The notes under the pieces are model-generated. The model was not told the DNA's origin. It made no database searches and saw only the letters and a list, made by a program, of their open reading frames with translations. A stretch of DNA of 54,690 nt from Patescibacteria group bacterium (GTDB lineage: Bacteria > Patescibacteriota > Microgenomatia > UBA1400 > Chisholmbacteraceae): the NCBI GenBank assembly GCA_022564195.1, contig JADFLW010000008.1:1-54690 (forward strand), read 5' to 3'. Position numbers and translations under genes: made by a program. Shown piece by piece: positions 3,655-40,355 of this stretch (position 1 is the first letter of the stretch; each line of letters begins with the position of its first letter).

Positions 3655-3749
3655 TTGCTATCTATATTTTTGTGGATATCTAGTATCTACATGGTAGAAG
3701 CTGTTTTCGCTTTCTGTTACATTGCTGTTGAGTACTTTTAACGGATCCT

Positions 3750-5942
3750 ATGTCTACCATTAAACGCAAAAGATCTCGTCGAGCTCTGCGGGTATCGCGG
3801 TTTTTGTTTTTTTTATTGTTGTTTTTAATCTTAGGTTTTAATGGAGGAGTGCTTGAGATCTCGAAGTACTTTTTGCTTTTCGGTCCTTTTGTCCTTGCCT
3901 CTGTTATTGTCCTGGAACATCGCATGCGCAATATTCCTCTTCCCAAACAGAAATCCCTCCTCCCTCTGATTTGGTTTTCTCTTCTCGTTTGGCTTGCTGT
4001 TGCTATTCCTTTTTCTTGGAGCCCTGGGTGGAGTGCTGCTTCCTTTTTTCGAGTGGCTTCCTATGCACTGCTGACTCTGCTCGCGGGCCTGCTGCTGCGA
4101 GATCGTAAGGACGTACGTTCTCTTTCTTATCTCCTTGTCGCTACCGTGTTGTTTTTACTGGCGCATAGCTACCTCTTTCTTCTTCCCGGAATTCGGACGG
4201 CTGGGGGAGCACTCAGCCTCATCTACGCCAGGCACGGACACAGCCATATTGCCGATGCGCTCCTTCTCGTAACACCGCTTGTTTTTGCACTCTCTCTCAA
4301 ACGTAAAGGAAAAATCTGGGCTTTGTTGTTTCCTATTCTCCTTGCTAGTTTCTTTTTCAGCTTCTCTCGCGCCGGGCTTGTGGTTGTCTTCTTCTCGTTG
4401 ATTGTCACCATTTTTCTTCTTCGGAAATCTGTTAATCGAAGGCAGGTTTTGTTCTTGTCTCTACTGGGGTTAGCGATATTGCTGTTTTTATCCCTTCCCG
4501 CCATTCTTGATAGCAACCAAGCTATGGTCAAACGTCATCCCTGGCTTTATCGTCAGGTATTTAAACCCACGAGTGCCACGAGGCGCTTAGCCTATTGGGG
4601 CCAGGCTGTGCGCGCTTTTGGGACGAGACCACTCACGGGAACTGGTCCGGGAACCTTTCGACTGATTTCTCAAGCTGAGCAGAAAGCTCCTGGTGATTTC
4701 TCTTGGTTTGCCCATAATTGGTACCTGCAAACCCTTGTAGAGTCAGGGGTCATTGGCTTCTTTCTATGGTCGTCTCTGTTTTTTATTCTTTTCAGGCGGG
4801 CTTTTCGTGCAACTGGCGTGCGCCGCAGTGATCCGTACTTCGTCGGGCTGTTCGTCGGTGTCCTTGCCTCGAGCGTCCACTCTTTTTTTGATTTCGACTG
4901 GGAATTCCCTGGAGTCTTTCTTTCCTTTTTGGTGATTCTTTTTGTCCTGCAGAACTTTTCTGCGAAGCCTACGTTGAAACCCCTCAACGATAGACTCCAC
5001 TACGCCGTCTTTTTTCTTCTTTCAACGCTTCTGGTTTTTGCTGGTGTCGTGAGTTTGCTTTCTGACGTTTATTGGACTGATGGTAACAAAATCAAAAGCT
5101 TGCGGTTGAATCCTCTGAATTCTTCAAGAATCCTCAATTATGTACGCTCTTTTGGCCCCTGTTGTGACCCCTTCTTTTCTGCTTTTTCCCTTCATCCTAG
5201 GCTCGCCGAGCTCTATGAAGTGTACGGGTACTGGTTTGCCAAACAGGCTGATTATTCTGAAGCGTTAGCCTACTACAAACGCGCGCTCTCGTTTGTCTCA
5301 ATAGGAAGACCCGATCTTGTTTTGACGCTTGCAGATATCTCTGAGCAGTTAGGGGAAAGGCAGAAGCAATATGCACTTCTCGAACGTTATGTTGGGGTTT
5401 ATACAAACATGCCAGGAGAGTTTATGTCTGGCGAATCCCAAGCTGAGATTGACATCTTCAATTCCTACATCCGACTTTCTCTCTCTCGTGGTGACTATGA
5501 TCCTGCCTTTGATGCGTTCTCTGCCCTTATCTCTCCCCGCCGGCGTGGATCCCATATTTACCTGGCCGGTGGATTCATTGAGCGCGCCGAGCTTCTCATC
5601 GAGCAGGGAAGGCTTGAGGAGGGCATGGGGCTGCTTCGTCGCTATTTTGCCCTTGCTGTTCCAGAGGATGATCGAGAATTGTTTCTCCTTGATAAGGCTC
5701 ACCGTAAAATTGGGGAAGTGGCTTTCCTTCTTTCCCGACATGCCTCTAACGATGCGGAGAAAGAGCATTACCTGCAGCAGGCGCTTCGACTGGATCCGTG
5801 GCAATCAGAGTATTATATTAAGTACGGTGATTTGTTGGAACCTTACGCACGAACCGCGGAGGAAAAAATCATCTACGAACGCTGTCTCTCCCTTCTTCCT
5901 CAAGATTATCACTGTCGCATGCGATTGGATCGACTTCCGTGA
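3750..5942 (+). CDS. O-antigen ligase-like (Wzy_C) membrane protein with a C-terminal TPR domain
   Basis: Multi-TM N-terminal region with FSFSRAGLV and HNWYLQTLVESGVIGFFLW signatures. The C-terminal ~280 aa are soluble and carry TPR-like repeats (YSEALAYYKRAL, HYLQQALRLDP). Confidence 0.75.
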   Translation: MSTIKRKRSRRALRVSRFLFFLLLFLILGFNGGVLEISKYFLLFGPFVLASVIVLEHRMRNIPLPKQKSLLPLIWFSLLVWLAVAIPFSWSPGWSAASFFRVASYALLTLLAGLLLRDRKDVRSLSYLLVATVLFLLAHSYLFLLPGIRTAGGALSLIYARHGHSHIADALLLVTPLVFALSLKRKGKIWALLFPILLASFFFSFSRAGLVVVFFSLIVTIFLLRKSVNRRQVLFLSLLGLAILLFLSLPAILDSNQAMVKRHPWLYRQVFKPTSATRRLAYWGQAVRAFGTRPLTGTGPGTFRLISQAEQKAPGDFSWFAHNWYLQTLVESGVIGFFLWSSLFFILFRRAFRATGVRRSDPYFVGLFVGVLASSVHSFFDFDWEFPGVFLSFLVILFVLQNFSAKPTLKPLNDRLHYAVFFLLSTLLVFAGVVSLLSDVYWTDGNKIKSLRLNPLNSSRILNYVRSFGPCCDPFFSAFSLHPRLAELYEVYGYWFAKQADYSEALAYYKRALSFVSIGRPDLVLTLADISEQLGERQKQYALLERYVGVYTNMPGEFMSGESQAEIDIFNSYIRLSLSRGDYDPAFDAFSALISPRRRGSHIYLAGGFIERAELLIEQGRLEEGMGLLRRYFALAVPEDDRELFLLDKAHRKIGEVAFLLSRHASNDAEKEHYLQQALRLDPWQSEYYIKYGDLLEPYARTAEEKIIYERCLSLLPQDYHCRMRLDRLP

Positions 5943-6049
5943 TCATTGTTTTTCTCCTTCTCCTTTTAGACTTGACGTCGCTATGTCGCTGAAGCGGTAT
6001 CGTATTGTTTACGCTACAATATAGCGATACATTATTTTTCTTGCTTCCC

Positions 6050-7246
6050 ATGATCACTAATACTCTTATACTGGTTCCATTTAACAATCCGCTAGATTGG
6101 CCCGCAGATTATCTCTTACAAACATGTTCTACATTATCTTCACATGGTAATCGTGTGTTTGCTTTTTTATGGGAAGATGCAAGGTCTCTGCGGGAAATCC
6201 TCTCCTTGCTTGTTTTTCGTAAGCGGCGGTTTCGTCTTCTTCATCGCAAGGACAACGTACTTTTCTTCACCCCAATACACTTCTTGCCGTTTCGTCGCTT
6301 CCGAATTGTTCGGACTGTGAATCTTTTTGTCAATGTTTTTCTGATGAAGCTTTTCTTTTTCTTGTTCTTCCGAGCTCACAAACGGATTCTTTGGGTCTTT
6401 TCTCCTGAATTCTATCAGCTTCCGAAATTCTTCGGTCGTTCGTTTCTTTCACTTTATGATTGCGTTGATTACTTCTCCTCTCCGAAAAGATCGCTTCACA
6501 AACGTCTTCGTGTCCAGGAGGAACGCCTTGTTCAGGCTTGTGATACCATGGTGGTGAATTCGCGTGCGCTTTTTGAAAAATTTACAAAGAAGCGTTCCCA
6601 TATTGCTGTTGTTCCACTGGGGTTTGCCCTCCCATTGTTTCCCTCTTTCAAAAAGATCGGAAGGAGTTCGCTGCCTTTTCCAGTCGATAAACCAATTATT
6701 GGATATGTAGGCGGTATTAACTATAGACTTGATTTTCGTTTATTGAACGAGCTTGTGGAATATAGTGATGATTACTATTTCGTTTTCATTGGTTCTAAAG
6801 AATCCGAACGAGAAGATTCTTATGCTGAAACGAAAGGTCAATTTGAAAAATTATTCTCCCATCACTATGTCTTCTGGGTTGATTCTTTACCGAAAGAAAA
6901 GATCCCGGCATTTATTGATTATTTCGACGTCGCCTTGATTCCCTATTCTATTCATTTAGAATTCAATAGGTACTGTTATCCTATGAAGTTGTTTGAATAT
7001 TTTTATCTTCAAAAGCCTGTGGTAGCCACGCCTATTCAGGAGTTAACCCGGCTTCAACCTTTGGTTCGCATCGGGTCGAATGCAACTGCATTTCGCCAGC
7101 ACATTCAGCATATCTTGAAAGGTGGTTGGCCTAAGGAACTTCAGAGGCGGCAAAGACGGCTTGCCATTGATAACTCTTGGGAGAAAAAGATTGAGGCTAT
7201 TTCTACGGTTCTTGAGCAGCACCCGATATTTCAGGAGTTGGTATGA
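6050..7246 (+). CDS. glycosyltransferase, GT-B fold (GT4/TuaH-like)
   Basis: VGGINYRLDF...FVFIGS...YPMKLFEYFYLQKPVVATP C-terminal signature. I prefer the ATG at 6050 to the TTG at 6005 used by the ORF track. Confidence 0.75.
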   Translation: MITNTLILVPFNNPLDWPADYLLQTCSTLSSHGNRVFAFLWEDARSLREILSLLVFRKRRFRLLHRKDNVLFFTPIHFLPFRRFRIVRTVNLFVNVFLMKLFFFLFFRAHKRILWVFSPEFYQLPKFFGRSFLSLYDCVDYFSSPKRSLHKRLRVQEERLVQACDTMVVNSRALFEKFTKKRSHIAVVPLGFALPLFPSFKKIGRSSLPFPVDKPIIGYVGGINYRLDFRLLNELVEYSDDYYFVFIGSKESEREDSYAETKGQFEKLFSHHYVFWVDSLPKEKIPAFIDYFDVALIPYSIHLEFNRYCYPMKLFEYFYLQKPVVATPIQELTRLQPLVRIGSNATAFRQHIQHILKGGWPKELQRRQRRLAIDNSWEKKIEAISTVLEQHPIFQELV

Positions 7247-7249
7247 TCT

Positions 7250-8227
7250 ATGTCTGTATTTGTTGTTATTCCTACCATCCGCGATCTCGCTTTCCTCAAA
7301 TCTTGGAAAGGTGAATTCAGGGATTGTCAGATTGTCATTATTGAAGATCGAGAAAAAAAAGAAATTGCCTGTCCGTCCGTCCCGGCCAAAGCTATCCATC
7401 ACTTTTCCTGGGAGGATATTCACAAGGATTTCGGTATAGACGAGTGGATTTTTTCTCGAAAGAATGCTGGCATTCGATCCTACGGATTCTGGAAGGCTTA
7501 TCGGATGGGTGCTGATGTAGTTATCACTTTAGATGATGATTGTTACCCGACCGGAAGCAGCTTTGTCCAGACTCATCTCGAAAATCTTTCCGTTAAAGCA
7601 CCAAGAGACTGGTATCCTACTTACCCAGACCCAAAGTTTATGTTCACGAGAGGGTTTCCCTATAAAGCGCGCGATCAGACGCCTGTGATGATTAGTCATG
7701 GGTTGTGGTCAGGCGTGGTTGACTTGGATGCAAAAACGCTCGTCAATTTTCCCAAACTTAACCAGAATCCGTATCCGCCAATCCGTCAGTTTGTTCCGAA
7801 CGGCTTGTATTTCCCTATGAGTTCTATGAATTTGGCTTTTAAAAGAGAAGCAACTCCTTTAATGTATTTTCCGCTGATGGGAGTGGGTAGTGATGGCACC
7901 GGATGGGGGTACGATCGCTTCGATGATATTTGGGCTGGTTTATTTGCAAAAAAGATTGTCGACCATCTTGGATGGAGTATCGTCAGTGGCTCGCCATTTG
8001 TTCACCATAAGGGTGCTTCTGATCGATTCCAGAATATACAAAAAGAAAAAGATGGACTCGTTGTCAACGAATGGCTTTGGAGACGTGTTGACTCGATGGA
8101 ATTGACGAGACGCACTGCTGCTCGTTGTTACCTTGAGCTCGCAGAAAAGATTCGATTTCCGAAACAGAGGTATTTTCGTAAGCTTCGAGAAGCAATGTTG
8201 ATTTGGGCAAAATTGTTCCTTCACTGA
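7250..8227 (+). CDS. reversibly-glycosylated-polypeptide / UDP-L-arabinopyranose mutase family protein (GT75, PF03214-like)
   Basis: Collinear full-length resemblance to plant RGP1, aligned from memory: VVIPTIRDLAFL, ITLDDDC, TRGFPY, SHGLW, PMSSMNLAF, RFDDIWAG, VHHKGAS, CYLEL, YFRKLREAM. Confidence 0.8.
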   Translation: MSVFVVIPTIRDLAFLKSWKGEFRDCQIVIIEDREKKEIACPSVPAKAIHHFSWEDIHKDFGIDEWIFSRKNAGIRSYGFWKAYRMGADVVITLDDDCYPTGSSFVQTHLENLSVKAPRDWYPTYPDPKFMFTRGFPYKARDQTPVMISHGLWSGVVDLDAKTLVNFPKLNQNPYPPIRQFVPNGLYFPMSSMNLAFKREATPLMYFPLMGVGSDGTGWGYDRFDDIWAGLFAKKIVDHLGWSIVSGSPFVHHKGASDRFQNIQKEKDGLVVNEWLWRRVDSMELTRRTAARCYLELAEKIRFPKQRYFRKLREAMLIWAKLFLH

Positions 8228-8276
8228 TCCGAACTTTTTTAAATAATAACAAGGTCCAGCAAAACATATCGGTCTT

Positions 8277-9041
8277 ATGAATAGTATTGGTTTTAAAAAC
8301 TACTTTGATTTTCTTTGGGCAATGACAGAGAAAGAAATCAAAGTTCGATATAAGAGAGCTATGTTCGGTTTCTTCTGGATCATTCTTAACCCACTTCTTC
8401 AAATGTTAATAATAGGATTGATTTTCTCGTTTTTTATAAAAATTCCAAATTACTTTCTTTTCCTGTTCAGCGGACTGTTACTCTGGCAGTTCTTCAGCCT
8501 CTCAGTATCAAAGACTACTCCTAGCTTTATCTACGAGCGCTCACTCCTGCAAAAAGCTAAATTTCCTAAAGAAGCCATTCCTATCTCTATAATCATTTCC
8601 AACTTTTTTAACCTACTCATCTCTCTTATCCTACTTTTGTCGTTTCTACTTCTAACAGGAAATCTCCCATTTCAAACACTCTGGCTTCTTTTTCCAGCAC
8701 TAATCTGGCTCTTCTTTTTAACAATTGGCTTAAGCTTACTCACATCATCACTCAACGTACGATATAGGGATATTAACTTCTTCGTCCAGTCAACACTCAT
8801 TCTATGGTTCTACGCGACTCCAATCCTCTATAATCTTACTATTATTCCTAGACACCTCTTAATCCTCTACTATCTAAATCCATTGACAACTATATTTGAA
8901 ATTTCACATATAGCTCTTATCAATCAAGGAAAAATAATACCCTCCATTGCTACTACAAATTTAGCGATTTCCTTGATAATTATTACCATTGGTGTAAAAG
9001 TTTACAAAAAAAACAACCCCTTTTTCGTCGACTGGATATAG
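8277..9041 (+). CDS. ABC-2 type polysaccharide/teichoic-acid export permease (Wzm/TagG-like)
   Basis: FDFLWAMTEKEIKVRYKRAMFGFFWIILNPLLQM N-terminal signature and 6 TM helices. Confidence 0.85.
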   Translation: MNSIGFKNYFDFLWAMTEKEIKVRYKRAMFGFFWIILNPLLQMLIIGLIFSFFIKIPNYFLFLFSGLLLWQFFSLSVSKTTPSFIYERSLLQKAKFPKEAIPISIIISNFFNLLISLILLLSFLLLTGNLPFQTLWLLFPALIWLFFLTIGLSLLTSSLNVRYRDINFFVQSTLILWFYATPILYNLTIIPRHLLILYYLNPLTTIFEISHIALINQGKIIPSIATTNLAISLIIITIGVKVYKKNNPFFVDWI

Positions 9042-9043
9042 TT

Positions 9044-9763
9044 ATGAGAAACATCGCAGTTCAACTAAGCAATGTATCTAAAAGATACACTCTCCATCAC
9101 GAAAAACCCACTTTGATAGAAAATATTTTAGCTAGAAGAAATTCAGAGAAGTTTTGGGCTTTAAAAAATATAGACTTGGCGATCAAAAAGGGCGAAAGAA
9201 TTGGCATCATTGGCCCAAATGGTTCTGGTAAAACAACGCTCTTGAAAATCATTTCCGGTATTACAACACCAACCACGGGTACGGTTGAAACTAGCGGAAA
9301 ACTTGTTTCGCTTATAGAGCTCGAAGCGGGTTTTCACTCAGACCTCACTGGTGAAGAGAATATTACTTTAAACGGACTACTCATGGGTATGAACAAGAAT
9401 GAAATACGTAGAAGAATGAAAGATATTATTACATTTGCAAATATCGGAAGCTTCATCGATTCACCATTTTATACGTACTCAAGTGGGATGGCGTTGCGTC
9501 TTGGCTTTTCTATAGCCGTACACGTTAACCCCGACATTCTCGTGCTGGATGAAAATCTTGCCGTTGGAGACCAAGAATTTAAGAAAAAATCATTACGTAA
9601 GATTGAACAGTTCTTCAAAGAGAAGAAAACAGTCATTTTAGTATCCCAGTGGTTCGACTTTGTCGAAAAGTATTGCACTCGAGTAATTCTGTTGAAAAAG
9701 GGGAAAGTAGTTACTCGGGGAACATTTTCGTCTGCTTATCGACGTTACAATAGTGAACCATGA
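9044..9763 (+). CDS. ABC polysaccharide export ATP-binding protein (Wzt/TagH-like, short form)
   Basis: Walker A GPNGSGKTT, signature YSSGM, Walker B ILVLDE. Starts 3 nt after the permease stop. Confidence 0.9.
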   Translation: MRNIAVQLSNVSKRYTLHHEKPTLIENILARRNSEKFWALKNIDLAIKKGERIGIIGPNGSGKTTLLKIISGITTPTTGTVETSGKLVSLIELEAGFHSDLTGEENITLNGLLMGMNKNEIRRRMKDIITFANIGSFIDSPFYTYSSGMALRLGFSIAVHVNPDILVLDENLAVGDQEFKKKSLRKIEQFFKEKKTVILVSQWFDFVEKYCTRVILLKKGKVVTRGTFSSAYRRYNSEP

Positions 9764-10590
9764 GTACCTACCATATGAAGCGTAGGAAGAGCGCTCCTCG
9801 CCAGCGGTCGTCAATCCCAGTAGTGGTACTCTGTGGTGGGAAGGGGTCTAGATTAAGAGAAGAAACCGAGTTTCGTCCGAAGCCGATGATTTCTATTGGT
9901 GGCAAGCCCATCCTTTGGCACATAATGAAAATCTATGCCCATTGGGGTTTTAACAAATTCGTCATCGCTCTCGGCTATAAGGGTGAACAAATCAAGGAGT
10001 ACTTCCTTCATCAACATCATCTTTCTTCAGACTTCACCCCGCAGATGCCCACGGGGAAGAAGGTCTTACATACAAACAATGTCCGAGAAAAAGTCGATCA
10101 TTACCGGATTATCTTTGCGGAAACTGGACTCGAAACCTTGCACGGGGAGCGGGTCCTTCTCTGTAAACCTTATATCCGCACGAGTCGTTTCATGGTTACC
10201 TACGGCGACGGTGTGATAGACTTGAATCTTCGAGAGGTTCTCGCTTTCCACAAGAAGATGGGGGTCATTGGAACAATCACCGGCGTGCACCCGCGATCCA
10301 AGTGGGGACTGGTCAAAACCGATGCAAAGGGGTTTGCCACGCGCTTTCGTCAGAAACCAGTGCTTGACGAGTACGTGAACGGAGGTTTTATGGTGTTTGA
10401 ACGGGAATTCTTTTCGTACCTTCGACTCGGTGAGTGGATCGAGTCGGGCCTGGAGCGTTTGGTCGAGAAACGTCAGCTTGCTGTTTACCCACATGATGGA
10501 TTTTGGTATGCGATGGACACGTATCAGGATATGGAGGCGTTGCAGGAGATGTGGAAGAGAAATCCAAAATGGAAAGTTTGGGAGGGTTAG
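9760..10590 (+). CDS. rfbF: glucose-1-phosphate cytidylyltransferase
   Basis: VVLCGGKGSRLREETEFRPKPMISIGGKPILWHIMKIY... is the classic RfbF/DdhA N-terminus. ATGA start/stop overlap with the upstream gene. Confidence 0.85.
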   Translation: MSTYHMKRRKSAPRQRSSIPVVVLCGGKGSRLREETEFRPKPMISIGGKPILWHIMKIYAHWGFNKFVIALGYKGEQIKEYFLHQHHLSSDFTPQMPTGKKVLHTNNVREKVDHYRIIFAETGLETLHGERVLLCKPYIRTSRFMVTYGDGVIDLNLREVLAFHKKMGVIGTITGVHPRSKWGLVKTDAKGFATRFRQKPVLDEYVNGGFMVFEREFFSYLRLGEWIESGLERLVEKRQLAVYPHDGFWYAMDTYQDMEALQEMWKRNPKWKVWEG

Positions 10591-10596
10591 ATTTCT

Positions 10597-11559
10597 ATGA
10601 GGCGGGTCCTTATTACCGGTGCTTCCGGATTCATCGGGGCAAACTTTTTCCACTACTTCCGTAAACGCAAGGCCTCAATTTTCCTTCTCGATAAGAAGTT
10701 CACCTGGCGCTTGAGACAGAGCACGCTCAAACAGGCTGCTCAAGTGATTGAAATTGATCTGAGAAAATCGCAAGCGGTCAGGGATGTTGTCCGTAATATG
10801 CGCCCAACCCATGTGTTCCATTTTGCTTCTGCTGGCGTATCGAGCCCGAAGGACTCTGGGCGGACTATCGTCTCGACCAACGCGTTGTCCTCGTTGGCGC
10901 TCTTGCAATCGCTGAAAAACACACCGCCAAAGATTTTTGTCAATATCGGCAGTTGCTTTGAATACGGAAGTCATCCAACCTCTATCGACGAATCGACCGC
11001 CGTTGCACCGTTGACTGTGTATTCCGCATCGAAGGTCGCAAGTACGTATCTTACTGAAGCGTTCGGACGATCTTTCTCCATCCCCGTCGTCACGCTTCGC
11101 CTGTTTGGCCTGTTTGGACCGTATGACGCCCCGCAACGACTCGTGGCACACAGCATCCTTTCCATCCTGAACAACAAACCCTCCATCACTATGACACAAG
11201 GATCCCAGGTTCTCGATTACTTGTATATTGAAGATCTCATGGGAGTCTTCGATACGATTATGCGCTACCCTTCCCTTATCCCTCCTTATGAGATCATCAA
11301 CATCGGGAGCGGAAGAGGTATCACTATCAAAGAGGTTGTTGAAATGATCCGTTCGCTGATGGATTCGGATATCCCGCTTTCCCCCGCGATCCCAACCAGA
11401 AGATTCGAATACCAACGACTGGTCGCCGATATCAGCAAAGCCAGGAAGCTTTTGGGCTGGGCTCCTACGTTTGGGCTCAAACACGGTCTTCTGCGTACCA
11501 TCCGTTGGTTCAAAAAAAACCTTCATCTGTATGACTCACTTCTCTCTGATCATGGTTGA
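10597..11559 (+). CDS. NAD-dependent epimerase/dehydratase (extended SDR)
   Basis: GASGFIGANF Rossmann motif and YSASK catalytic motif. The exact reaction cannot be assigned. Confidence 0.8.
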   Translation: MRRVLITGASGFIGANFFHYFRKRKASIFLLDKKFTWRLRQSTLKQAAQVIEIDLRKSQAVRDVVRNMRPTHVFHFASAGVSSPKDSGRTIVSTNALSSLALLQSLKNTPPKIFVNIGSCFEYGSHPTSIDESTAVAPLTVYSASKVASTYLTEAFGRSFSIPVVTLRLFGLFGPYDAPQRLVAHSILSILNNKPSITMTQGSQVLDYLYIEDLMGVFDTIMRYPSLIPPYEIINIGSGRGITIKEVVEMIRSLMDSDIPLSPAIPTRRFEYQRLVADISKARKLLGWAPTFGLKHGLLRTIRWFKKNLHLYDSLLSDHG

Positions 11560-11583
11560 CACATGATATACTGATCCAAAATC

Positions 11584-12612
11584 ATGGCAGCGACACGCCT
11601 TTTGGTAACAGGGAGTGAAGGCTACATAGGGTCTGTTTTGGTTCCGCTTCTTTTAGGAAACGGGTACGATATTGTAGGGATAGACTCCTATTTCTTTCCA
11701 CTCAATGGTGACCGGCTTTCCAAAACACCTTATCGACGTGTTCAAAAAGATATCCGAGACTTGAAACTTGAGGATTTTGCTGGGGTTGAGCACCTTGTGC
11801 ATTTGGCTGCACTCTCAAACGATCCTCTCGGTGAAATCAATCCGAAACTCACCGAAGAAATCAATCACCATGCGACGCTTCGCCTGGCACGATTAGCTAA
11901 GGCTGCGGGCGTGCGACGCTTTGTTTTTGCCTCTTCATGTAGCGTCTATGGCTCCCAGGAAGGATTGCTGGATGAAACGGCTCCAGTACAACCGCTTTCA
12001 GCGTACGCGAGGTCAAAAGCCGCCGCAGAAGCGGAACTTCTGAATCTTGCGTCAGAAACGTTCTCTCCAATTGTTCTACGCAACGCAACTGTGTATGGTC
12101 CTTCTCCGAACATGCGTTCAGATTTGGTGCTTAATAACCTTATCTCTTTAGCTCATCTTACTGGGCTGGTGAAATTAATGAGTGATGGGAGAGCTTGGCG
12201 CCCGATGGTTCACGTCATCGATGTTGCTTCTGCTATCCTGCTGTGTCTCAAACGTCCTATCGAAGCTCTTCATGCTCAAATTTTTAACATCGGTTTCAAC
12301 GATCAAAATTATCAAATACGAAAACTCGCCTCCGAAATTCACCGTTGTTATCCTGCTTTTCGTATTTCGATAACAGACGGGAATCATGACAAAAGAAGTT
12401 ATCGGGTGGACTTTTCTAAAGCGAAGAAATACCTTGATCTTGTTCCCAAGAAGACGGTTGGGGACGGTATTAAAGAAGTCATCAGACTCTTCAAAACGCG
12501 TCGAGTATCTTATGAACAGTTGTTTGGAGAGGACTACGTTCGGCTTGAGCGCTTACAAAGCTTACTGAGTCAGAGGCTTCTTGATGAGAAACTGAGATGG
12601 GTCCAAAAATAA
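11584..12612 (+). CDS. NAD-dependent epimerase/dehydratase (extended SDR)
   Basis: TGSEGYIGS Rossmann motif, SSCSVYG and YARSK motifs. The exact reaction cannot be assigned. Confidence 0.8.
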   Translation: MAATRLLVTGSEGYIGSVLVPLLLGNGYDIVGIDSYFFPLNGDRLSKTPYRRVQKDIRDLKLEDFAGVEHLVHLAALSNDPLGEINPKLTEEINHHATLRLARLAKAAGVRRFVFASSCSVYGSQEGLLDETAPVQPLSAYARSKAAAEAELLNLASETFSPIVLRNATVYGPSPNMRSDLVLNNLISLAHLTGLVKLMSDGRAWRPMVHVIDVASAILLCLKRPIEALHAQIFNIGFNDQNYQIRKLASEIHRCYPAFRISITDGNHDKRSYRVDFSKAKKYLDLVPKKTVGDGIKEVIRLFKTRRVSYEQLFGEDYVRLERLQSLLSQRLLDEKLRWVQK

Positions 12613-13976
12613 AGAAAAGCTCAAGTCGACTATCCAAAGTTTCACAAAAAACGCTTAAGAAAAAGATCCATAGACTTGTTGAGCGATACTTCTACGCTGC
12701 CCATCTTCAAGGTGATTTTGTTCCTATGAGAGATCGTATTCGCTATTCGGGAAGAGTGTATGACAAAAACGAACTCATCAGTCTCGTTGATGCGTCTTTG
12801 GATTTTTGGCTTACTGAAGGTCCGTATGCGGAAGCGTTTGGACGCTCATTGCGAAAATTTCTCGGCTTGGATTACGCTTCCTTGGTAAACTCTGGTTCCT
12901 CTGCAAACTTGATTGCACTCTCCGCTTTAACCTCGCTGAGACTTGAAGACCGCCGAATTCGGCCAGGTGATGAAGTGATTACCGCCGCATGTGGCTTTCC
13001 CACAACAGTGAATCCAATTCTCCAAATTGGAGCTGTTCCAGTGTTTGTCGATGTCGGTCTCCTGACTGGAAACGCTATCGCTTCTCAAATTCGTAAAGCC
13101 ATCGGTAAAAAAACCAAAGCAATAATGATGGCACATACCCTTGGTTTTCCGTTTGATCTTGATGCCGTTATGCGCTTGGCTACTTCTCACAAACTTTGGG
13201 TTATCGAAGACTGTTGTGACGCGTTTGGTGCAACTTTTGGTGGAAAAAAGGTCGGCACCTTTGGCCATATTGCAACGCTCAGTTTCTATCCAGCTCATCA
13301 TATCACCACTGGTGAAGGAGGAGCTATCTTAACAAACAATCCCTTGCTTTACCGGATCATTGAGTCGTTTCGTAATTGGGGGAGAGACTGTTGGTGTAGA
13401 CCGGGTGAAGACGACCTGTGCGGAAAACGCTTCGGATGGAAGCTGGGTACACTGCCGTTTGGATACGATCATAAGTTTATTTACTCCGAGATAGGCTACA
13501 ATCTCAAGATGACGGATTTGCAAGCCGCGATTGGGGTGGAGCAGATGAAGAAACTTCCTTCTTTTATTCGAGCAAGGAGAAGGAATTGGAAGCAACTTTT
13601 TCACGCATTACAGCCTTTTGAACGATACTTCGTCCTCCAAAAAAAGCATCCGAAGTCGGTTCCTAGTCCGTTTGGTTTTATGCTGGTTGTCCGCGATAGC
13701 GCCCCGTTTACTCGTGATCAAGTTGTTCGCTTTCTTGAAAAACACAACATCGCTACTCGGATGCTTTTTGCTGGAAATCTTCTCAAGCATCCAGCCTATA
13801 CAACGATAAAACACAGAATTGTCGGTAAACTTACGAACAGCGATTTTATTATGAGCAATGGGTTTTGGGTTGGTGTCTATCCCGGAATGACAAAGCCACA
13901 GATGAATTATCTCATCTCAATATTCAAGAAATTCTTCGCAAACTACCTTCACCGTAAAGAAAGCATCAAGCAATAG
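12597..13976 (+). CDS. rfbH: CDP-6-deoxy-L-threo-D-glycero-4-hexulose-3-dehydrase (E1; DegT/DnrJ/EryC1 fold)
   Basis: NSGSSANLIA...GDEVITAACGFPTTVNPILQ. FYPAHHITTGEGG has His where aminotransferases have the Schiff-base Lys. The Cys pattern is C-X57-C-X1-C-X7-C (DCC...RDCWCRPGEDDLC). Confidence 0.85.
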   Translation: MGPKIKKSSSRLSKVSQKTLKKKIHRLVERYFYAAHLQGDFVPMRDRIRYSGRVYDKNELISLVDASLDFWLTEGPYAEAFGRSLRKFLGLDYASLVNSGSSANLIALSALTSLRLEDRRIRPGDEVITAACGFPTTVNPILQIGAVPVFVDVGLLTGNAIASQIRKAIGKKTKAIMMAHTLGFPFDLDAVMRLATSHKLWVIEDCCDAFGATFGGKKVGTFGHIATLSFYPAHHITTGEGGAILTNNPLLYRIIESFRNWGRDCWCRPGEDDLCGKRFGWKLGTLPFGYDHKFIYSEIGYNLKMTDLQAAIGVEQMKKLPSFIRARRRNWKQLFHALQPFERYFVLQKKHPKSVPSPFGFMLVVRDSAPFTRDQVVRFLEKHNIATRMLFAGNLLKHPAYTTIKHRIVGKLTNSDFIMSNGFWVGVYPGMTKPQMNYLISIFKKFFANYLHRKESIKQ

Positions 13977-14046
13977 CGTCATCGTTTAATAGAAATTCTT
14001 TCTACCAAATTTGTGCCGGATTTTGACAATTACCCTTTACTATCCT

Positions 14047-14961
14047 TCACTGGTTCCGGGACTCTTTTTTGAAAAACAGATAGCCAATACCCAAGCCCCG
14101 CAGTTTAAAGAAAAACTCGATCGCAGTATGATACAGTTGTTTAACACCACTTCTTTGAAAATGTAGAAGAGACTTTATACTCCCCTTCAGCTTTTTATGC
14201 GAGTCTCTGAAGTTGTCTGACACGATTTTCTTTGCAAATTGTTCTCCTCTCATAGCGAAATAGCCGTAACATGCTAACTCTCCGCACGAATACGCCCACA
14301 TTTGTTTTTGAAACTCTTTTTTTGTTAGCCATCGGTCATGGTAGACCTTCACTTTGGGATCGCGCAGAATTTTAAAACCGCTTAATAGAACCCTTTGAGC
14401 GAATTCCGCATCCTCAGCGGCTAAGCCAATCGCTGATGGGCCTAACCATTCTTTAAATAACCCCATCTTGCGAAATACCTCTCTTTTAAATGCCATGTTG
14501 TTGCCAAAGCCAATATATTTCCAATGAGGGGTCGGTTTAGTAATGATCCTCTCTTTGGTGCTTACAAAGATACCTGGACAAAGTTTTCCTTTGTTTAAAA
14601 ATGGCTCATGCGGTAGTACTTGACCAAAAACTCCTACTATATTTTTGTGCTCTTTGAGCGCGTGATGGATGTTCTTGAGCCAGTGTTTTTCAACTAAACA
14701 ATCGTCGTCGGTGAAGGCGAGAATTTCGCCGCTGGCTCTTTTTACAGCGTCATTTAATCCTTTTGATTTACCTTTGGTATTCATTTTCGAGTATACAATT
14801 TTTGCTGAACCCAACTGCTTGACGACGCTCTTTGTGGAATAGCCCTTGCTTTGATCAACTATGATTACTTCAAAATCTGAAACATCGCTGGCTAAAATTT
14901 TTTTGAGGCACTCTTGAATTTTTTCCGGACGGTTGAGGGTGGAGATTATTACGGAGATCAT
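14047..14961 (-). CDS. GT2 glycosyltransferase (tandem paralog B)
   Basis: I take the internal start MISVIISTLNRPEK at 14961. AFTDDDC DxD motif. The TAATG junction overlaps the upstream paralog's stop by 1 nt. Confidence 0.8.
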   Translation of the reverse strand: MISVIISTLNRPEKIQECLKKILASDVSDFEVIIVDQSKGYSTKSVVKQLGSAKIVYSKMNTKGKSKGLNDAVKRASGEILAFTDDDCLVEKHWLKNIHHALKEHKNIVGVFGQVLPHEPFLNKGKLCPGIFVSTKERIITKPTPHWKYIGFGNNMAFKREVFRKMGLFKEWLGPSAIGLAAEDAEFAQRVLLSGFKILRDPKVKVYHDRWLTKKEFQKQMWAYSCGELACYGYFAMRGEQFAKKIVSDNFRDSHKKLKGSIKSLLHFQRSGVKQLYHTAIEFFFKLRGLGIGYLFFKKESRNQ

Positions 14962-15899
14962 TACTTTTTCTGCATTCTTTTTAATCTCGCAAAATATCGA
15001 GCAACTAAAACACCTTGTGCATAATACAGAGCGTGGATTGTGACATCGAATGCAATTCTTACCAGCCACTTCGGGTGAAATTCTACAATGCAGGTTTTTA
15101 TTTCTTGATGTCTTTTTTCTCGCTTGTCTTTGAACACCCGAATTATGTATTTTTTATTTCTCTTGTCACCAAGGAAGTAATAATATTCCAGCACACTTAT
15201 CGTGCCGTAATTGTAGGAAAATTGTTGCTTCTCATATTCTCTTTGGTTAAGCCAGCGGTCGTGGTACACGAGAATTTCAGGATTAAACAGAATTCTTGTT
15301 CCTTGTTTTTTTTCTCTTAATACTCTGTAGATCAGTTCTCCTTCTTCTCCTGCGCGACCAACTGATCCGGCGCCGAGCCACTCTTTGAAATCACCTATTT
15401 TGTTGAAGGTGCTTTTTCTTACCGCTATGTTATTCCCGATGCCAAAATCGAAAAGTTCATACGATATTTTCGTGAGTATTTCTCTTTTGGTTCTTCTGGG
15501 ATCCGATACGCCAGGGGAAATTAAACCAGGATGGTGTTCCGGTCGGAATGGTACTACTCTGCCAAACACCACAGGAAACGATTCCTTTTCTTGGAAACTT
15601 GAATCGATGTTCTTGAGCCAGTGTTTGTCAACTATACAGTCGTCTGTGGTGAAGGCGAGAATGTTGCCTTTGCTCACCCTTATCCCTAGATTTCTGGCTC
15701 GACTTAATCCTTTTCGGCCTATTTTAATGTATCTTATCGACTCATTTAAAAATTTCTGTACCACTCTCTTGGTTGTGTTGCCTCTGTTCTGGTCAATGAC
15801 AATAATCTCAAAACCAGAAAACGTGTTCGCGAGGATGGAATAGAGACAGTTCTGAAGCTTTTCTGGACGATTGAGTGTGGAAATGATGACAGAGATCAT
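14961..15899 (-). CDS. GT2 glycosyltransferase (tandem paralog A)
   Basis: MISVIISTLNRPEKLQ..., AFTTDDC. Clearly paralogous to the next gene. Confidence 0.8.
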   Translation of the reverse strand: MISVIISTLNRPEKLQNCLYSILANTFSGFEIIVIDQNRGNTTKRVVQKFLNESIRYIKIGRKGLSRARNLGIRVSKGNILAFTTDDCIVDKHWLKNIDSSFQEKESFPVVFGRVVPFRPEHHPGLISPGVSDPRRTKREILTKISYELFDFGIGNNIAVRKSTFNKIGDFKEWLGAGSVGRAGEEGELIYRVLREKKQGTRILFNPEILVYHDRWLNQREYEKQQFSYNYGTISVLEYYYFLGDKRNKKYIIRVFKDKREKRHQEIKTCIVEFHPKWLVRIAFDVTIHALYYAQGVLVARYFARLKRMQKK

Positions 15900-17101
15900 T
15901 GATCTTTCAATCTTTTTTCTAGCAGCTTTTTAACGCTTCTCTCCCATGTTTGTAAGGAGTATTTATGCGATGCTTCTTCTCTTGCGGCTTGACCCATCTG
16001 CCGTATGTGGCTGAGGGTTTCGTTTTGAATCAGATTTTGTATGGCCCTGATTAACCCCTTTGTGTTGACATCACTAATCAAATATCCGGTTTTGTTGTTC
16101 TTGATAATTTCCGGGCTGGCTCCTTTCTTGAAAGCAATGACTGGAGTAGCACACGACATTGCTTCGATGATCGTAAACCCGAACGGTTCTCTCCATATCG
16201 AGGGAAAAACTACAAAATTAGCAGCGTGATAGAGTTTCGGTAAACTACGATAGTTTTTCTTCCCGACAATCTCGGTATTTTTTAATCTCTTTGCTTCCCG
16301 ATACACTCTTTCTGAAATTTTCTTCGCCTTTCGGCGTACATCGATATTCGACCAAAGATCCGGTCCACCTGCCAGAAGGAGTTTAAACTTCAAACCCTTT
16401 TCTTCTAATACTCGAGCAGCTTTTAATAACATAAAAATGCCTTTTCGTTTATTCCAGTTGCTGGCATAGAGAAAAGTTAGATGCTGCTTGTGTCTGACTC
16501 TGTTCATTTCTTTTTTGGGTTGAAAGAGTGCTGTATCTATACCGTTATGGATTACCTCATGTCTGTTCGGAGACAGGTGTGGGTGGTTTTTTATAAATTT
16601 CGTGCAAAGGTTTTTTGAGACAAAATAAAAATACGTCTGTTGGTATCGACTTTTCAACATTCTTTGTAATGGGAAAAACACGTATCCTGCCGGGTATCCA
16701 ATTCTTAGTATTGTCCGTCTGGGAGAGAGAAGAGAGACGAGTGGAACATTGAAGGATACTAAAACATCGCAATCAATTGATTTCATAATAAACAATAGAC
16801 AATACGGAAGTTCTGCTAAGACTTTTATATAACTGCCAATCTTCCATAACAAAGGATCATGGTGTGATCGGTCGATCAGTTTTTCACCAATTTCCTTCAA
16901 CCAAGTAGGGTAGAACAATTTGTTTATTATATATTTCTTTCCACTCTTTACTTTTGCAGCCGAAAATGATTTGCGGTCTATTCTCTCTTTGTAAAGAAAG
17001 TCCAAAAAAAGTAAAAATGCTCTTTCCGTGCCTCCGCAGGAGTTACTGTCAATTACCTCTATGCCCGGATCGAGTAGAAGAGCAACTTTCATTTTCCTCA
17101 T
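15896..17101 (-). CDS. GT4 (GT-B fold) glycosyltransferase
   Basis: REPFGFTIIEAMSCATPVIAF...GYL signature. ATGA overlap with the downstream GT2. Confidence 0.85.
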   Translation of the reverse strand: MRKMKVALLLDPGIEVIDSNSCGGTERAFLLFLDFLYKERIDRKSFSAAKVKSGKKYIINKLFYPTWLKEIGEKLIDRSHHDPLLWKIGSYIKVLAELPYCLLFIMKSIDCDVLVSFNVPLVSLLSPRRTILRIGYPAGYVFFPLQRMLKSRYQQTYFYFVSKNLCTKFIKNHPHLSPNRHEVIHNGIDTALFQPKKEMNRVRHKQHLTFLYASNWNKRKGIFMLLKAARVLEEKGLKFKLLLAGGPDLWSNIDVRRKAKKISERVYREAKRLKNTEIVGKKNYRSLPKLYHAANFVVFPSIWREPFGFTIIEAMSCATPVIAFKKGASPEIIKNNKTGYLISDVNTKGLIRAIQNLIQNETLSHIRQMGQAAREEASHKYSLQTWERSVKKLLEKRLKDQ

Positions 17102-33553: not shown

Positions 33554-33694
33554 TACAATATTATTCAAGACGTTTCATGGGCCCACTCATGTTACAATAG
33601 TTGCCAGACGACATTCCGCTTTCACGCTTAGTTCATTTAACTAAAGTGGTTGCTAGACGACGGAGAACGCCAGGCGTCTATTTCTATTTGGGAT

Positions 33695-35185: not shown

Positions 35186-35226
35186 GTTATGGTCTAGGGG
35201 GTAGGGGTAGGTGATACAATGAAACG

Positions 35227-36744: not shown

Positions 36745-36842
36745 AAAGGGAACGGCCCGAATCCCGTTTCGTGCCTTTGCAATTGAAAATATCCTTGTTT
36801 ATCATTCCGAAACCTTATAATTTTGTATACTATACCTCGGTT

Positions 36843-37244: not shown

Positions 37245-37245
37245 T

Positions 37246-40281: not shown

Positions 40282-40355
40282 GGCCGGATGGCGAAGTGGC
40301 CCAACGCTGTGGTCTGCAAAACCACTATTCGCGGGTTCGAATCCCGCTCCGGCCT
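40282..40355 (+). tRNA. tRNA-Cys (anticodon GCA)
   Basis: Folded by hand. Acceptor stem GGCCGGA/TCCGGCC; anticodon stem GTGGT/ACCAC with loop CTGCAAA; T arm GCGGG-TTCGAAT-CCCGC. Discriminator U73, as expected for tRNA-Cys. CCA is not encoded. Confidence 0.9.

Follow-up and report, generated by a model that had tools for sequence, protein, structure and literature searches.

A full-length GT75 protein, a likely NDP-pyranose/furanose mutase, encoded in a glycan export module of a Patescibacteria bacterium

The window analysed here comprises 54,690 nucleotides of a contig (JADFLW010000008.1, assembly GCA_022564195.1) from a Patescibacteria group bacterium, and its relevant features are collected in Table 1. 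The gene under study starts with ATG, ends with TGA, and encodes a protein of 325 residues. The stop codon of the preceding glycosyltransferase gene (GT1 in the following) lies 3 nt before this start, and the exporter genes wzm and wzt follow after a gap of 49 nt. The flanking genes are those described in the first-pass annotation of this DNA, a TuaH-like glycosyltransferase and Wzm/Wzt, with the similarity of GT1 to TuaH being weak. The Shine-Dalgarno-like sequence of the gene lies within the 3' end of GT1, whereas scans for promoters and terminators yielded only background levels.

Table 1. Features of the gene run and of the candidate priming locus (positions in the window)
Feature	Positions	Strand	Basis and remarks
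Wzy_C (WaaL/O-antigen-ligase-like) membrane protein, C-terminal TPR repeats	3750..5942	+	PF04932, 70 bits, and TPR
GT-B glycosyltransferase (GT1/GT4 group, weakly TuaH-like)	6005..7246	+	PF13692/PF00534; NF047676 TuaH 110.6 bits, cut-off 550
AGGAG, Shine-Dalgarno-like	7233..7237	+	12 nt 5' of the ATG of the GT75 gene, within the GT1 gene 3' end; read from sequence
GT75/PF03214 gene, predicted mutase	7250..8227	+	325 aa; Pfam, PDB sequence matches, AF2 model, residue mapping
Wzm, ABC-2 permease of glycan exporter	8277..9041	+	PF01061, 62 bits
Wzt/TagH-like ABC ATPase, 239 aa	9044..9763	+	PF00005; TagH models 207-222 bits, below cut-offs
Glucose-1-phosphate cytidylyltransferase-like (RfbF/DdhA-like), first cassette gene	9760..10590	+	TIGR02623 237.8 bits, full length, cut-off 300; 96% aa identity to L087
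SDR, NDP-hexose 4,6-dehydratase-like	10597..11559	+	TIGR01181 141 bits, below cut-off; best PDB match dTDP-glucose 4,6-dehydratase; 98% to L087
SDR, candidate 4-ketoreductase or epimerase	11584..12612	+	PF01370; best PDB match 6vo6, 125 bits; 96% to L087
RfbH/DdhC, CDP-6-deoxy-D-xylo-4-hexulose 3-dehydrase (E1)	12597..13976	+	NF011936 670.5 bits, cut-off 423; 98% to L087
Two GT2 genes and one GT4 glycosyltransferase	14047..17101	-	Pfam; 93-97% aa identity to L087
Priming enzyme candidate, GT4-family WecA/MraY-like gene	37201-38349		29 kb from the GT75 locus

The product of ORF 7250-8227 is a genuine full-length GT75/PF03214 protein, as had been proposed from its motifs. A profile search gave 166.8 bits for PF03214 (RGP), for which the cut-off is 23.8 (E = 9.8e-49), and the match, which spans profile positions 6-337 of 342, constitutes a single domain with no competing family. 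A sequence search of the PDB returned GT75 proteins only, with E values of 2e-25 for 8cid (rice UAM2) and 4e-19 for MtdL. The blocks which the first-pass annotation had matched to a plant RGP were compared with fetched and aligned plant sequences (Brassicaceae: Raphanus UAM2), and all of them stand opposite their plant counterparts, namely VVIPTIRDLAFL/IVIPTIRNLDFL, ITLDDDC/FTIDDDC, TRGFPY/VRGYPF, SHGLW, PMSSMNLAF/PMCGMNLAF, RFDDIWAG/RYDDMWAG, VHHKGAS/IYHSKAS, and YFRKLREAM/YFDKLADAM; the sole difference from the version given there is a plant block that reads CYIEL and not CYMEL.

The AlphaFold (AF2) model of the protein (pLDDT 87.7, pTM 0.89) displays a GT-A Rossmann-like N-terminal region, the GT75 core, and a C-terminal helical region. 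Foldseek superposes the model on rice UAM2 (OsUAM2, 8cid) with a TM score of 0.83 and on MtdL with scores of 0.70-0.73, whereas the next matches are generic GT-A proteins with TM ≤0.43. Active-site residues were mapped with MAFFT against MtdL residues 70-330 and the plant sequences. Residues D95-D96-D97 of the DxD motif align with MtdL D109-D111 and with the plant DDD, and R134 in TRGFPY is the predicted nucleophile and autoglycosylation Arg, corresponding to R158 of OsUAM1 and R159 of MtdL; both the motif and the loop Arg, singled out earlier as the features on which the assignment depended, are therefore retained and are invariant in the clade. The other key residues are S192-M193, as well as D158 (in DLD), R223, D226 (a candidate for the catalytic base), and H253 (the predicted Mn ligand), the last four standing opposite D195, R257, D260, and H287 of MtdL, respectively. 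All residues whose mutation abolishes the activity of MtdL or OsUAM1 (PMC9937993, PMC6861824) are present, and they are invariant in 27 CPR homologues and in 76 loci. In the inactive class-2 protein OsUAM2, DDN, T, and R occupy the positions of DDD, R223, and H253. Judged by these residues, the protein is apparently catalytically competent.

The specificity pair is N72-A73, compared to D-S in plants and S-D in MtdL. In MtdL, guanine is recognised by T13 and S86, residues D87 and Q229 are essential for sugar binding, and the S86D substitution abolishes GDP binding (PMC9937993). The alignment places P8, N72, A73, and M193 at the positions of T13, S86, D87, and Q229, so the residue set of the MtdL/Hyg20 type is absent. 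Residues P8, M193, and S257 resemble those of plants, and in the N-terminal base-binding region the protein can be aligned with the plant enzymes but not with MtdL. On the other hand, S192 replaces the plant G (MtdL position 228), and neither the pocket residues (D-S, G) nor the clade are those of plant-type class-1 UAMs.

The genes around the GT75 gene include components of ABC-dependent glycan export, with Wzm/Wzt (8277-9763), GT1, GT2, and GT4 genes, and the Wzy_C-TPR protein. The latter, which matches the O-glycosylation ligase model TIGR03097 with 57.6 bits and, weakly, the WaaL structure 7tpg, could act as the ligase or O-oligosaccharyltransferase of the exported glycan, and it shares 48% identity with its syntenic counterpart in a Chisholmbacteria genome. 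Wzt is short and does not include a C-terminal carbohydrate-binding domain. A survey of 77 non-redundant homologue loci with 10-kb flanks identified the TuaH-like GT1 family, WaaL-like Wzy_C proteins, Wzm/Wzt, and priming transferases as recurring partners. Among the neighbours were Wzt (31 loci), Wzm (28), and WecG (13); a TuaH-like GT1 is found within 10 kb in 20 of the 77 loci and immediately adjacent in 11, Wzy_C proteins are near the gene in about 36 (19+17), and Bac_transf in 14, being adjacent in 10 of these. In at least 12 genomes the GT75 gene is located directly beside dnaA, usually with Wzy_C straight after it. Each locus carries one paralogue, with the exception of L060. In CPR bacteria, the GT75 gene, GT1, Wzy_C, and Wzm/Wzt thus make up a core module that is conserved.

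A cassette predicted to direct the synthesis of a CDP-3,6-dideoxyhexose, in which the second SDR gene (11584..12612) overlaps rfbH by 16 nt, begins at the end of wzt. Among its enzymes, RfbH is above its equivalog cut-off, RfbF is full-length but below it, and the two SDRs match no equivalog model above cut-off. The cassette represents the sole predicted sugar-nucleotide pathway in the gene run, and it was absent from the first-pass annotation. A second CPR contig, L087, also carries a GT75 gene of this kind together with the CDP pathway. From RfbF through GT2, the two cassettes are 93-98% identical in amino acids and ~97% in DNA, and the DNA identity is 94-100% for the GT2/GT4 stretch up to the end of L087. 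Since that contig covers only the first 35 codons of GT4, the exchanged cassette, including the two GT2 genes and these 35 codons, is demonstrated as far as window position 16005, where L087 ends. The core module is much less similar, with identities to L087 of 76% for the GT75 protein, 54% for GT1, 58% for Wzm, and 72% for Wzt, and the DNA identity changes sharply at about 9724-9760, at the wzt/rfbF junction. The CDP-3,6-dideoxyhexose genes, together with GT2/GT4, are a variable, laterally exchanged module, which this contrast (~97% vs 76%) and the sharp breakpoint mark as independent of the GT75 gene. By analogy with the O-antigens of Salmonella and Yersinia, its contribution to the glycan is probably a separate decoration in the pyranose form.

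The closest characterised relatives of the protein by sequence are class-1 mutases of plants and green algae, with 32-35% identity over 315 columns and up to 190 bits, compared to 71 bits for MtdL. The green-algal UAMs, at ~190 bits, hold about rank 95-100 among the best 150 representative clusters, so that not all of these clusters are closer to the protein than the plant-type enzymes. The protein itself belongs to a large clade, mainly of Patescibacteria (CPR), which includes homologues 57-82% identical to it; the best matches (76% to Chisholmbacteria) and the synteny of this locus place the genome most likely in the Microgenomates group, nearest to Chisholmbacteria. At least 885 homologues were found at E≤1e-5. 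Clustering at 50% identity gave 1290 clusters, and a homologue is present in 154 species genomes of GTDB, so the rarity of the family outside plants that had been implied does not hold. Several homologues of the clade are already auto-annotated as RGP/UDP-arabinopyranose mutase. A rough NJ tree separates a distinct CPR clade from a single plant/green-algal clade; the tree is star-like, and the direction of an ancient transfer is not readable from it. The statement that no bacterial member had been characterised was incorrect, with MtdL, a GDP-L-galactose mutase for which crystal structures are published, and Hyg20, a GDP-L-fucose mutase, being such members (PMC9937993), and with bacterial and archaeal entries already listed in CAZy GT75 in 2019 (PMC6861824). 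The family was already known in bacteria, and the novelty claimed for it was overstated. Among the top-ranked literature matches, no paper mentions GT75/RGP together with CPR or Saccharibacteria.

These observations are best accommodated by a cytoplasmic, Mn2+/Mg2+-dependent NDP-pyranose/furanose mutase, probably acting on a pyrimidine nucleotide and feeding the adjacent GT1 in the assembly of an ABC-exported surface glycan, a reading to which we assign a probability of roughly 0.6. If the mechanism follows that of MtdL and the plant enzymes, Mn2+ and the diphosphate would be held by the DDD motif and H253, D226 would activate R134, and R134 would attack C1, yielding a transient Arg-sugar adduct; the sugar ring could then open and reclose through O4, after which the NDP would be re-attached. 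The thermodynamically disfavoured NDP-furanose would probably be drawn off by GT1, encoded 3 nt upstream, which might add the furanoside to a lipid-linked glycan. Wzm/Wzt would export this glycan and the WaaL-like Wzy_C-TPR protein would pass it on to the final acceptor, which may be a surface protein or a polymer of the wall. As GT1 is immediately adjacent in only 11 of the 77 loci, another transferase may consume the furanose donor. A furanose-containing surface polymer, as originally suggested, is a reasonable reading of a same-strand run that also encodes GT1 and Wzm/Wzt.

A pyrimidine nucleotide is probable, and most likely UDP, because P8 is as in the UDP-using plant enzymes, N72 is found at the position of S86D, and the N-terminus is plant-like, although P8 and N72 do not discriminate between UDP and CDP. 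Our best guess for the sugar is UDP-Galp or a related common UDP-sugar. Identification of the sugar from neighbouring SDRs was attempted through NCBIfam and PDB matches for 16 of them (two from the window, 14 from the surroundings of homologues) and was abandoned, since they are heterogeneous (GalE-like, Fcl-like, 4,6-dehydratase-like) and none reaches an equivalog cut-off.

The specific sugar proposed in the first-pass annotation, with the protein acting as a plant-like UDP-L-arabinopyranose mutase in an operon that builds an L-arabinofuranose-containing surface polymer, appears unlikely. The proximity to class-1 UAMs (up to 190 bits, 32-35%, against 71 bits for MtdL), the plant-like P8, M193, and S257, and the plant-like nucleotide-binding region would agree with it, but the plant enzymes also turn over UDP-Gal (PMC9937993), and likeness to them is therefore not enough to define the sugar. 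At the specificity positions the protein has N-A and not the plant D-S, with S192 in place of the plant G, and neither UDP-glucose dehydrogenase nor a recognisable UDP-xylose synthase/4-epimerase (UXS/UXE) set was found among window ORFs of at least 150 aa or among recurrent neighbours at the 77 loci. The lack of such genes in the 54-kb window and the 10-kb flanks weighs little, because substrate genes may lie elsewhere in the genome; nevertheless, with no arabinose pathway in sight and a different residue pair, L-arabinose is not supported.

Less probable still is a mutase for CDP-3,6-dideoxyhexose (or CDP-6-deoxyhexose), which would convert the product of RfbF-SDR-SDR-RfbH between pyranose and furanose forms in the manner of the predicted mutase WbyH, thought to make the paratofuranose of Yersinia pseudotuberculosis (PMC5399914). 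Paratofuranose and L-altrofuranose, with a dedicated predicted mutase gene, provide a precedent (PMC5399914), although the papers on WbyH, a predicted CDP-paratose/altrose mutase, give no family assignment for it. P8 and N72 would fit CDP, and the only sugar-nucleotide pathway of the same-strand run starts 1.5 kb downstream and accompanies the GT75 gene in L087 as well. The cassette, however, is almost unchanged between the two genomes while their GT75 proteins differ by nearly a quarter of residues, with the breakpoint exactly at wzt/rfbF; in the survey of 77 loci the RfbF family was not found elsewhere and DegT/RfbH-like genes occurred at just 6, and relatives of 70-78% identity have no CDP genes within the surrounding DNA examined. 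No active-site differences separate the proteins with and without the cassette, and no E3 reductase (of the ferredoxin-NAD(P) reductase type) as a partner of RfbH was found in the window. The lowest probability, a very small one, falls to a protein that is not a mutase in vivo, serving as a self-glycosylating Arg glycosyltransferase (primer or scaffold) or as a non-catalytic, class-2-like partner. Autoglycosylation of the conserved Arg does occur among GT75 proteins, those of class 2 in plants act as inactive partners (PMC9937993, PMC6861824), and OsUAM2, which belongs to class 2, is the top structural match. That match has a simple explanation, since the sequence and fold searches of the PDB returned no plant GT75 entry other than 8cid, and the residues lost in class 2 (the third D of DDD, R257, and H287 in MtdL numbering) are retained here and invariant across the clade, which, L060 excepted, has a single paralogue per locus.

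The mutase reading might be extended to the clade as a whole. We can speculate, with considerable reservation, that the N72-A73 GT75 clade is the standard flavin-independent, plant-type furanose-donor synthase of Patescibacteria, yielding not UDP-L-Araf but UDP-Galf without Glf, or an undescribed donor, and built into a conserved envelope-glycan block of CPR through GT1, Wzy_C, and Wzm/Wzt. Patescibacteria attach to other microbes and rely on this surface contact for their way of life, and to our knowledge almost nothing is known about their envelope glycans. Furanosides are often antigenic, and we know of none in animal glycans. The recurrence of the GT75 gene with a WaaL-like ligase, GT1, and an ABC exporter suggests that furanosides may be common on CPR surfaces. 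The family would also widen the set of metal-dependent mutases with which NDP-furanoses, difficult to obtain by chemical synthesis, can be made enzymatically (PMC9937993). In itself, however, the protein is an unremarkable representative of an established family, and the main corrections to the earlier picture are that bacterial GT75 mutases had already been characterised and that the evidence does not point to L-arabinose.

Comparison with the class-1 UAM/RGP proteins of plants and algae (OsUAM1, AtRGP1-3; EC 5.4.99.30) reveals full-length homology, a single domain, and all catalytic residues in common, as well as P8, M193, S257, and a similar N-terminal nucleotide-binding segment. The protein differs from them in belonging to a separate clade, in having N72-A73 and not D-S, S192 and not G, and DLD where their third DxD reads DYD, and in being encoded in a bacterial locus for an exported glycan, near which no genes of an arabinose pathway were seen. 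MtdL from the A201A pathway of Marinactinospora thermotolerans (7XPR-7XPV, 7YUA) and Hyg20 from hygromycin A biosynthesis in Streptomyces hygroscopicus are likewise bacterial GT75 proteins, and the fold, Mn2+ ligands, Arg nucleophile, and Asp base of MtdL are predicted to be shared. The identity to MtdL is, however, 28% over residues 70-330, with an unalignable N-terminal base-binding region, and whereas MtdL and Hyg20 serve secondary-metabolite pathways, the protein described here is encoded in a surface polymer locus.

The flavin-dependent mutase Glf/UGM, with which bacteria normally produce furanose donors, catalyses the same type of reaction, contraction of an NDP-pyranose ring through a covalent C1 adduct, with an unrelated fold and with FAD instead of Mn2+ and Arg. 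It also supplies furanosyl donors for ABC-exported polymers, such as the Klebsiella O-galactan and the mycobacterial galactan, as is well established (PMC6861824). Within the window, no gene resembling glf was seen. At the level of gene organisation, the closest parallels are monoderm loci for ABC-dependent O-glycans, S-layer glycans, or wall polymers, for example the slg cluster of Geobacillus, which likewise combine cytoplasmic glycosyltransferases, Wzm/Wzt, a Wzy_C/WaaL-like transferase, and a variable nucleotide-sugar module. The slg cluster encodes Wzm/Wzt together with the Wzy_C-type transferase WsaB. What sets the present locus apart from such systems is the inclusion of a GT75 gene in the core and the position of the priming enzyme candidate, 29 kb away.

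The mutase ORF, which starts with ATG and ends with TGA and is preceded at 12 nt by AGGAG, is separated by 3 nt from the upstream glycosyltransferase gene and by 49 nt from the start of wzm, bearing out the tight placement between a TuaH-like glycosyltransferase and Wzm/Wzt described in the first-pass annotation. Its single full-length Pfam match, PF03214 (RGP), extends over profile positions 6–337 of 342 with an E value of 9.8e-49 and 166.8 bits (gathering score, 23.8), and thus the earlier assignment as a full-length RGP/GT75 homologue is right at the family level. NCBIfam has no model for this protein. In a sequence search of the PDB, only GT75 proteins rise above noise, namely 8cid (OsUAM2, a rice class-2 protein; E 2e-25) and five entries of the bacterial mutase MtdL (E ~4e-19); a profile of 27 homologues improves these values to 3e-37 and 7e-24, respectively. 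In the comparison with rice UAM proposed earlier, the AlphaFold2 model (mean pLDDT 87.7, pTM 0.89) matches OsUAM2 with a TM score of 0.83, followed by MtdL (0.70–0.73) and then by generic GT-A enzymes (≤0.43). The N terminus of the mutase is strand β1 of a Rossmann-like fold, and the protein has neither a signal peptide nor a membrane segment.

Residues 70–330 of MtdL were rebuilt from HMMER alignments, with the numbering right at 16 of 16 checked residues (15 of them named in PMC9937993), and equivalents were read from a MAFFT alignment of the window protein with this segment and plant sequences. They comprise the DxD motif D95-D96-D97 (MtdL D109–D111), R134 (R159, the autoglycosylated nucleophile, R158 in OsUAM1 (PMC6861824)), D158 (D195), R223 (R257), D226 (D260, the proposed base), H253 (H287, a Mn2+ ligand), and R76 (R90). 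The DDD motif and the loop arginine are therefore kept, as the first-pass annotation had it. These residues are invariant across 27 homologues from Patescibacteria (CPR), as well as in the RGP genes recovered from 76 loci, except for R76K in a few. The inactivity of class-2 GT75 proteins has been linked to specific positions (PMC9937993), and exactly there the inactive OsUAM2 has DDN, Thr in place of R257, and Arg in place of H287, whereas the window protein carries active-type residues. The third DxD motif, D158-L159-D160, is the bacterial-type DLD, present in all bacterial GT75 entries according to a 2019 review (PMC6861824). When plant sequences were aligned with the window protein, every motif block quoted in the first-pass annotation was found, although the plant counterpart of CYLEL reads CYIEL, not CYMEL. 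AtRGP1 shares 96% identity with the cluster whose representative is Raphanus UAM2. Thus, the residues, the Pfam match, and the predicted structure establish the mutase as a member of GT75, as far as sequence and model go, and from this we infer its enzymatic activity.

The view that no bacterial member had been characterized is out of date, since MtdL is the GDP-L-galactose mutase of the A201A pathway, with crystal structures containing substrate and product, and Hyg20 is the GDP-L-fucose mutase of the hygromycin A pathway (PMC9937993). Nor is a bacterial GT75 protein new as such: of the GT75 entries in CAZy in 2019, 9 were bacterial and 43 archaeal (PMC6861824), and by 2023 the family stood at 308 overall (PMC9937993), and JGI annotates many homologues as 'reversibly glycosylated polypeptide/UDP-arabinopyranose mutase'. 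A word-indexed search yields at least 885 homologues at E≤1e-5, the best 120 of which are 57–82% identical and equal in length, with the named ones among these 120 belonging to Chisholmbacteria, Gottesmanbacteria, Saccharimonadales, or 'Patescibacteria group'. An exhaustive search of 50%-identity representatives gives 1290 clusters at E≤1e-3, of which 340 reach E≤1e-30. With each GTDB species represented by a single genome, a scan finds a relative in 154 genomes, mostly those of Patescibacteria (Gottesman-, Woese-, Roizman-, Davies-, Shapiro-, and Chisholmbacteria, Paceibacterota, Saccharibacteria); relatives at 40–48% identity occur in Chloroflexota, Acidobacteriota, Dormibacterota, Melioribacteraceae, Nitrospirota, Armatimonadota, and others. 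Against class-1 mutases of green algae and plants, the window protein reaches as much as 190 bits, compared with 92 for OsUAM2 and 71 for MtdL, so by sequence it is much closer to the plant type than to the actinomycete type. In the phylogeny, proposed earlier as a check for horizontal transfer and built as a rough NJ tree, a tight CPR clade, one plant and green-algal clade, and many deep prokaryotic branches are seen, with no sign of recent plant-to-bacterium transfer.

ORFs were called and clustered in 87 loci (the window and 86 fetched around homologues), and 77 non-redundant loci were used to count the neighbour families lying up to 10 kb from the mutase. These include GT2 (37/77), Wzt (31), Wzm (28), DUF4330 (25), SDR (22), the TuaH-like GT1 (20; directly beside the mutase in 11), Wzy_C in two clusters (19 and 17; the former beside it in 11), Bac_transf (14; beside it in 10), WecG/TagA (13), and DnaA and DnaN (12 each); DegT/RfbH-like proteins are limited to 6 loci, and RfbF-like ones to the window. 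Three gene orders are seen repeatedly: dnaN<dnaA<RGP>Wzy_C>, DUF4330<Wzy_C<GT1>RGP>, and Wzt<Wzm<RGP>Bac_transf>. Within an envelope-glycan module, the patescibacterial GT75 clade keeps a conserved position, and the best lead is this family-wide association with the CPR surface-glycan core, rather than the single gene. The pair of GT75 and Wzy_C also has a conserved origin-proximal position. In at least 12 patescibacterial genomes (loci L003–L005, L007, L010, L011, L013, L015, L016, L025, L040, and L065), the GT75 gene lies within one gene of a divergent-strand dnaA-dnaN, and in ten of them Wzy_C directly follows it. PQQ-like β-propeller proteins with DUF5060 (~980–1150 residues) repeatedly flank GT75 (L003, L011, L013, L035, L088, and L089), and L003 has two, of which the copy that does not flank the mutase is fused to a WecG/TagA glycosyltransferase domain; no such gene is found in the window.

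Features of the window and their coordinates
Feature	Position	Strand	Remarks
Same-strand gene run	2291–13976	+	short gaps
Split LA_3751/LA_3752-like putative glycosyltransferase	2291–3654	+	two overlapping ORFs, 220 and 238 aa
G6 run at the ORF junction	2938–2946		ATGGGGGGT
Wzy_C (WaaL-like) protein		+	730 aa, TPR repeats; after the split gene
GT1, GT-B transferase	6005–7246	+	weak TuaH match; directly before GT75
GT75 mutase	7250–8227	+	325 aa
Wzm, then Wzt		+	downstream of GT75; Wzt short, without carbohydrate-binding domain
Glucose-1-phosphate cytidylyltransferase-like (RfbF-like)		+	after Wzt
Two SDRs		+	after the cytidylyltransferase-like gene
Block shared with L087	9760–16005 (at least)		L087 14811–21056
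RfbH/DdhC	12597–13976	+	670 bits, above equivalog cut-off
Two GT2, GT4, arylsulfotransferase-like, methyltransferase genes			after RfbH; Pfam
Arylsulfotransferase-like gene	17188–18381		in the glycan cluster
Two tandem FemAB-family genes	23386–25319		after a G5/3D-domain protein
Three consecutive ORFs	33650–37244	+	511, 505, and 167 aa; no Pfam match
GT4-family (WecA/MraY-like) gene	37201–38349		directly downstream of the three ORFs
WecA/MraY-like and UbiA-family pair	37201–39236		55-nt overlap
tRNA-Cys	40282–40357		sole tRNA gene in the window
tRNA-Cys and LAGLIDADG region	40282–41123		free-standing homing-endonuclease-like ORF, 217 aa, 113 nt downstream of tRNA-Cys

The content of the run in the window (RfbF-like, SDR, SDR, RfbH) makes the predicted synthesis of a CDP-linked 3,6-dideoxyhexose, not of a UDP-pentose, its only nucleotide-sugar pathway. 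Among ORFs of at least 150 residues in the 54.7-kb window, no UDP-glucose dehydrogenase, Glf, or E3 reductase is found, and RfbH/DdhC (E1) thus stands there without an E3-type iron-sulphur flavoprotein reductase partner that would complete the 3-deoxygenation. The two LA_3751/LA_3752-like ORFs jointly resemble one putative glycosyltransferase of ~455 residues, encoded by a single gene in a Chisholmbacteria relative; the split could be an assembly-error frameshift, a pseudogene, or a phase-variable tract. Sulfatase/phosphodiesterase-family genes lie near the mutase in relatives (L074, 11533–13743; L087, 1369–8712), in one case fused to a PAPS-reductase domain, and such genes, together with the arylsulfotransferase-like one, hint at sulfated or phospho-modified glycans. 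The tandem FemAB genes (peptidoglycan interpeptide-bridge formation) and the G5/3D protein fit a monoderm-type wall. Mycobacterial UbiA-type enzymes make decaprenyl-phosphoribose for arabinofuranose donors, and by this analogy the WecA/MraY-like and UbiA pairing might point to a lipid-linked pentofuranose route.

By family knowledge, the cytoplasmic enzyme would bind an NDP-pyranose via Mn2+, held by D97 and H253, and R223. Following the MtdL model, D226 would deprotonate R134 for attack on C1, after which the sugar ring would open and reclose via O4, and the NDP would be re-attached. The gene context suggests that GT1, whose gene ends 3 nt upstream, would use the scarce furanose donor to extend a glycan on a lipid carrier primed by a Bac_transf or WecA-type enzyme, that the finished chain would be exported by Wzm/Wzt, and that the Wzy_C-TPR protein, which weakly matches the WaaL structure 7tpg and also an O-glycosylation-ligase model, may pass it to a wall or protein acceptor.

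In MtdL, guanine is contacted by T13, N42, and S86, and substitution by the plant residues (T13P, S86D) weakens or abolishes GDP binding (PMC9937993). The window protein shares P8 with plant enzymes and has N72 where MtdL has S86, and its N-terminal 60 residues align with plant enzymes but not, by HMMER, with MtdL, which argues for a pyrimidine nucleotide, UDP and CDP being inseparable by these residues. The sugar pocket of MtdL comprises S86-D87 and Q229, with D87 and Q229 essential (PMC9937993); plant enzymes have D-S and Met instead, whereas in the window protein these positions are N72-A73 and M193, and S192 takes the place of the plant Gly. Read in the 76 loci whose mutase sequence can be aligned, the 72/73 pair is N-A in 34 (the clade of the window), V-S in 15 (chiefly with the layout DUF4330<Wzy_C<GT1>RGP>), T-D or S-D in 12 (MtdL-like, chiefly from non-CPR phyla), and T-S in 8. 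These subtypes track clade and gene layout, and the pair is a candidate specificity determinant; the N-A subtype suggests that the substrate pocket of this clade probably differs from both characterized groups. The protein is a new member of a known enzyme family, and the large patescibacterial clade to which it belongs is set apart by its pocket residues. Among the SDRs near homologues, some are GalE-like, some Fcl-like, and some dehydratase-like, and none of them is diagnostic of the sugar; our best guess is a common UDP-sugar such as UDP-Galp. UDP-L-Arap, the substrate implied by the L-arabinofuranose product proposed in the first-pass annotation, is possible but unsupported.

A CDP-dideoxyhexose is itself an unlikely substrate, even though its pathway is encoded beside the mutase, also in L087, a second CPR contig (mutase 76% identical) with the same Wzm-Wzt-RfbF-SDR-SDR-RfbH-GT2-GT2-GT4 block. 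The two contigs show 93–98% protein identity in RfbF, RfbH, the SDR pair, and the GT2 pair, whereas identity is 76% for RGP, 72% for Wzt, 58% for Wzm, and 54% for GT1. DNA identity, 41–72% up to ~9723, rises to 93–100% from 9724, at the wzt/rfbF junction, with a sharp breakpoint (~9724–9760), and stays high to 16005, where the L087 sequence ends. The shared block is ~97% DNA-identical and holds at least seven genes, the last being the start of a GT4. GC content is 0.44–0.49 in two 2-kb windows within the cassette (10001–14000) and 0.39–0.42 in neighbouring core genes. The CDP-sugar and glycosyltransferase block is therefore a recently exchanged cassette, and the core to which it is attached, mutase included, is far more diverged; the pattern suggests that Patescibacteria recently exchanged a serotype-like glycan module laterally. 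No CDP genes are found in the available DNA around the mutase of L088 (78%), a Chisholmbacteria genome (76%), or L089 (70%), and active-site motifs do not differ between mutases with and without the cassette. Since the cassette was exchanged independently and these motifs are alike, the substrate of the mutase probably does not come from the CDP pathway. In its behaviour, the cassette is comparable to the variable modules for side branches in O-antigen clusters of Salmonella and Yersinia (PMC5399914).
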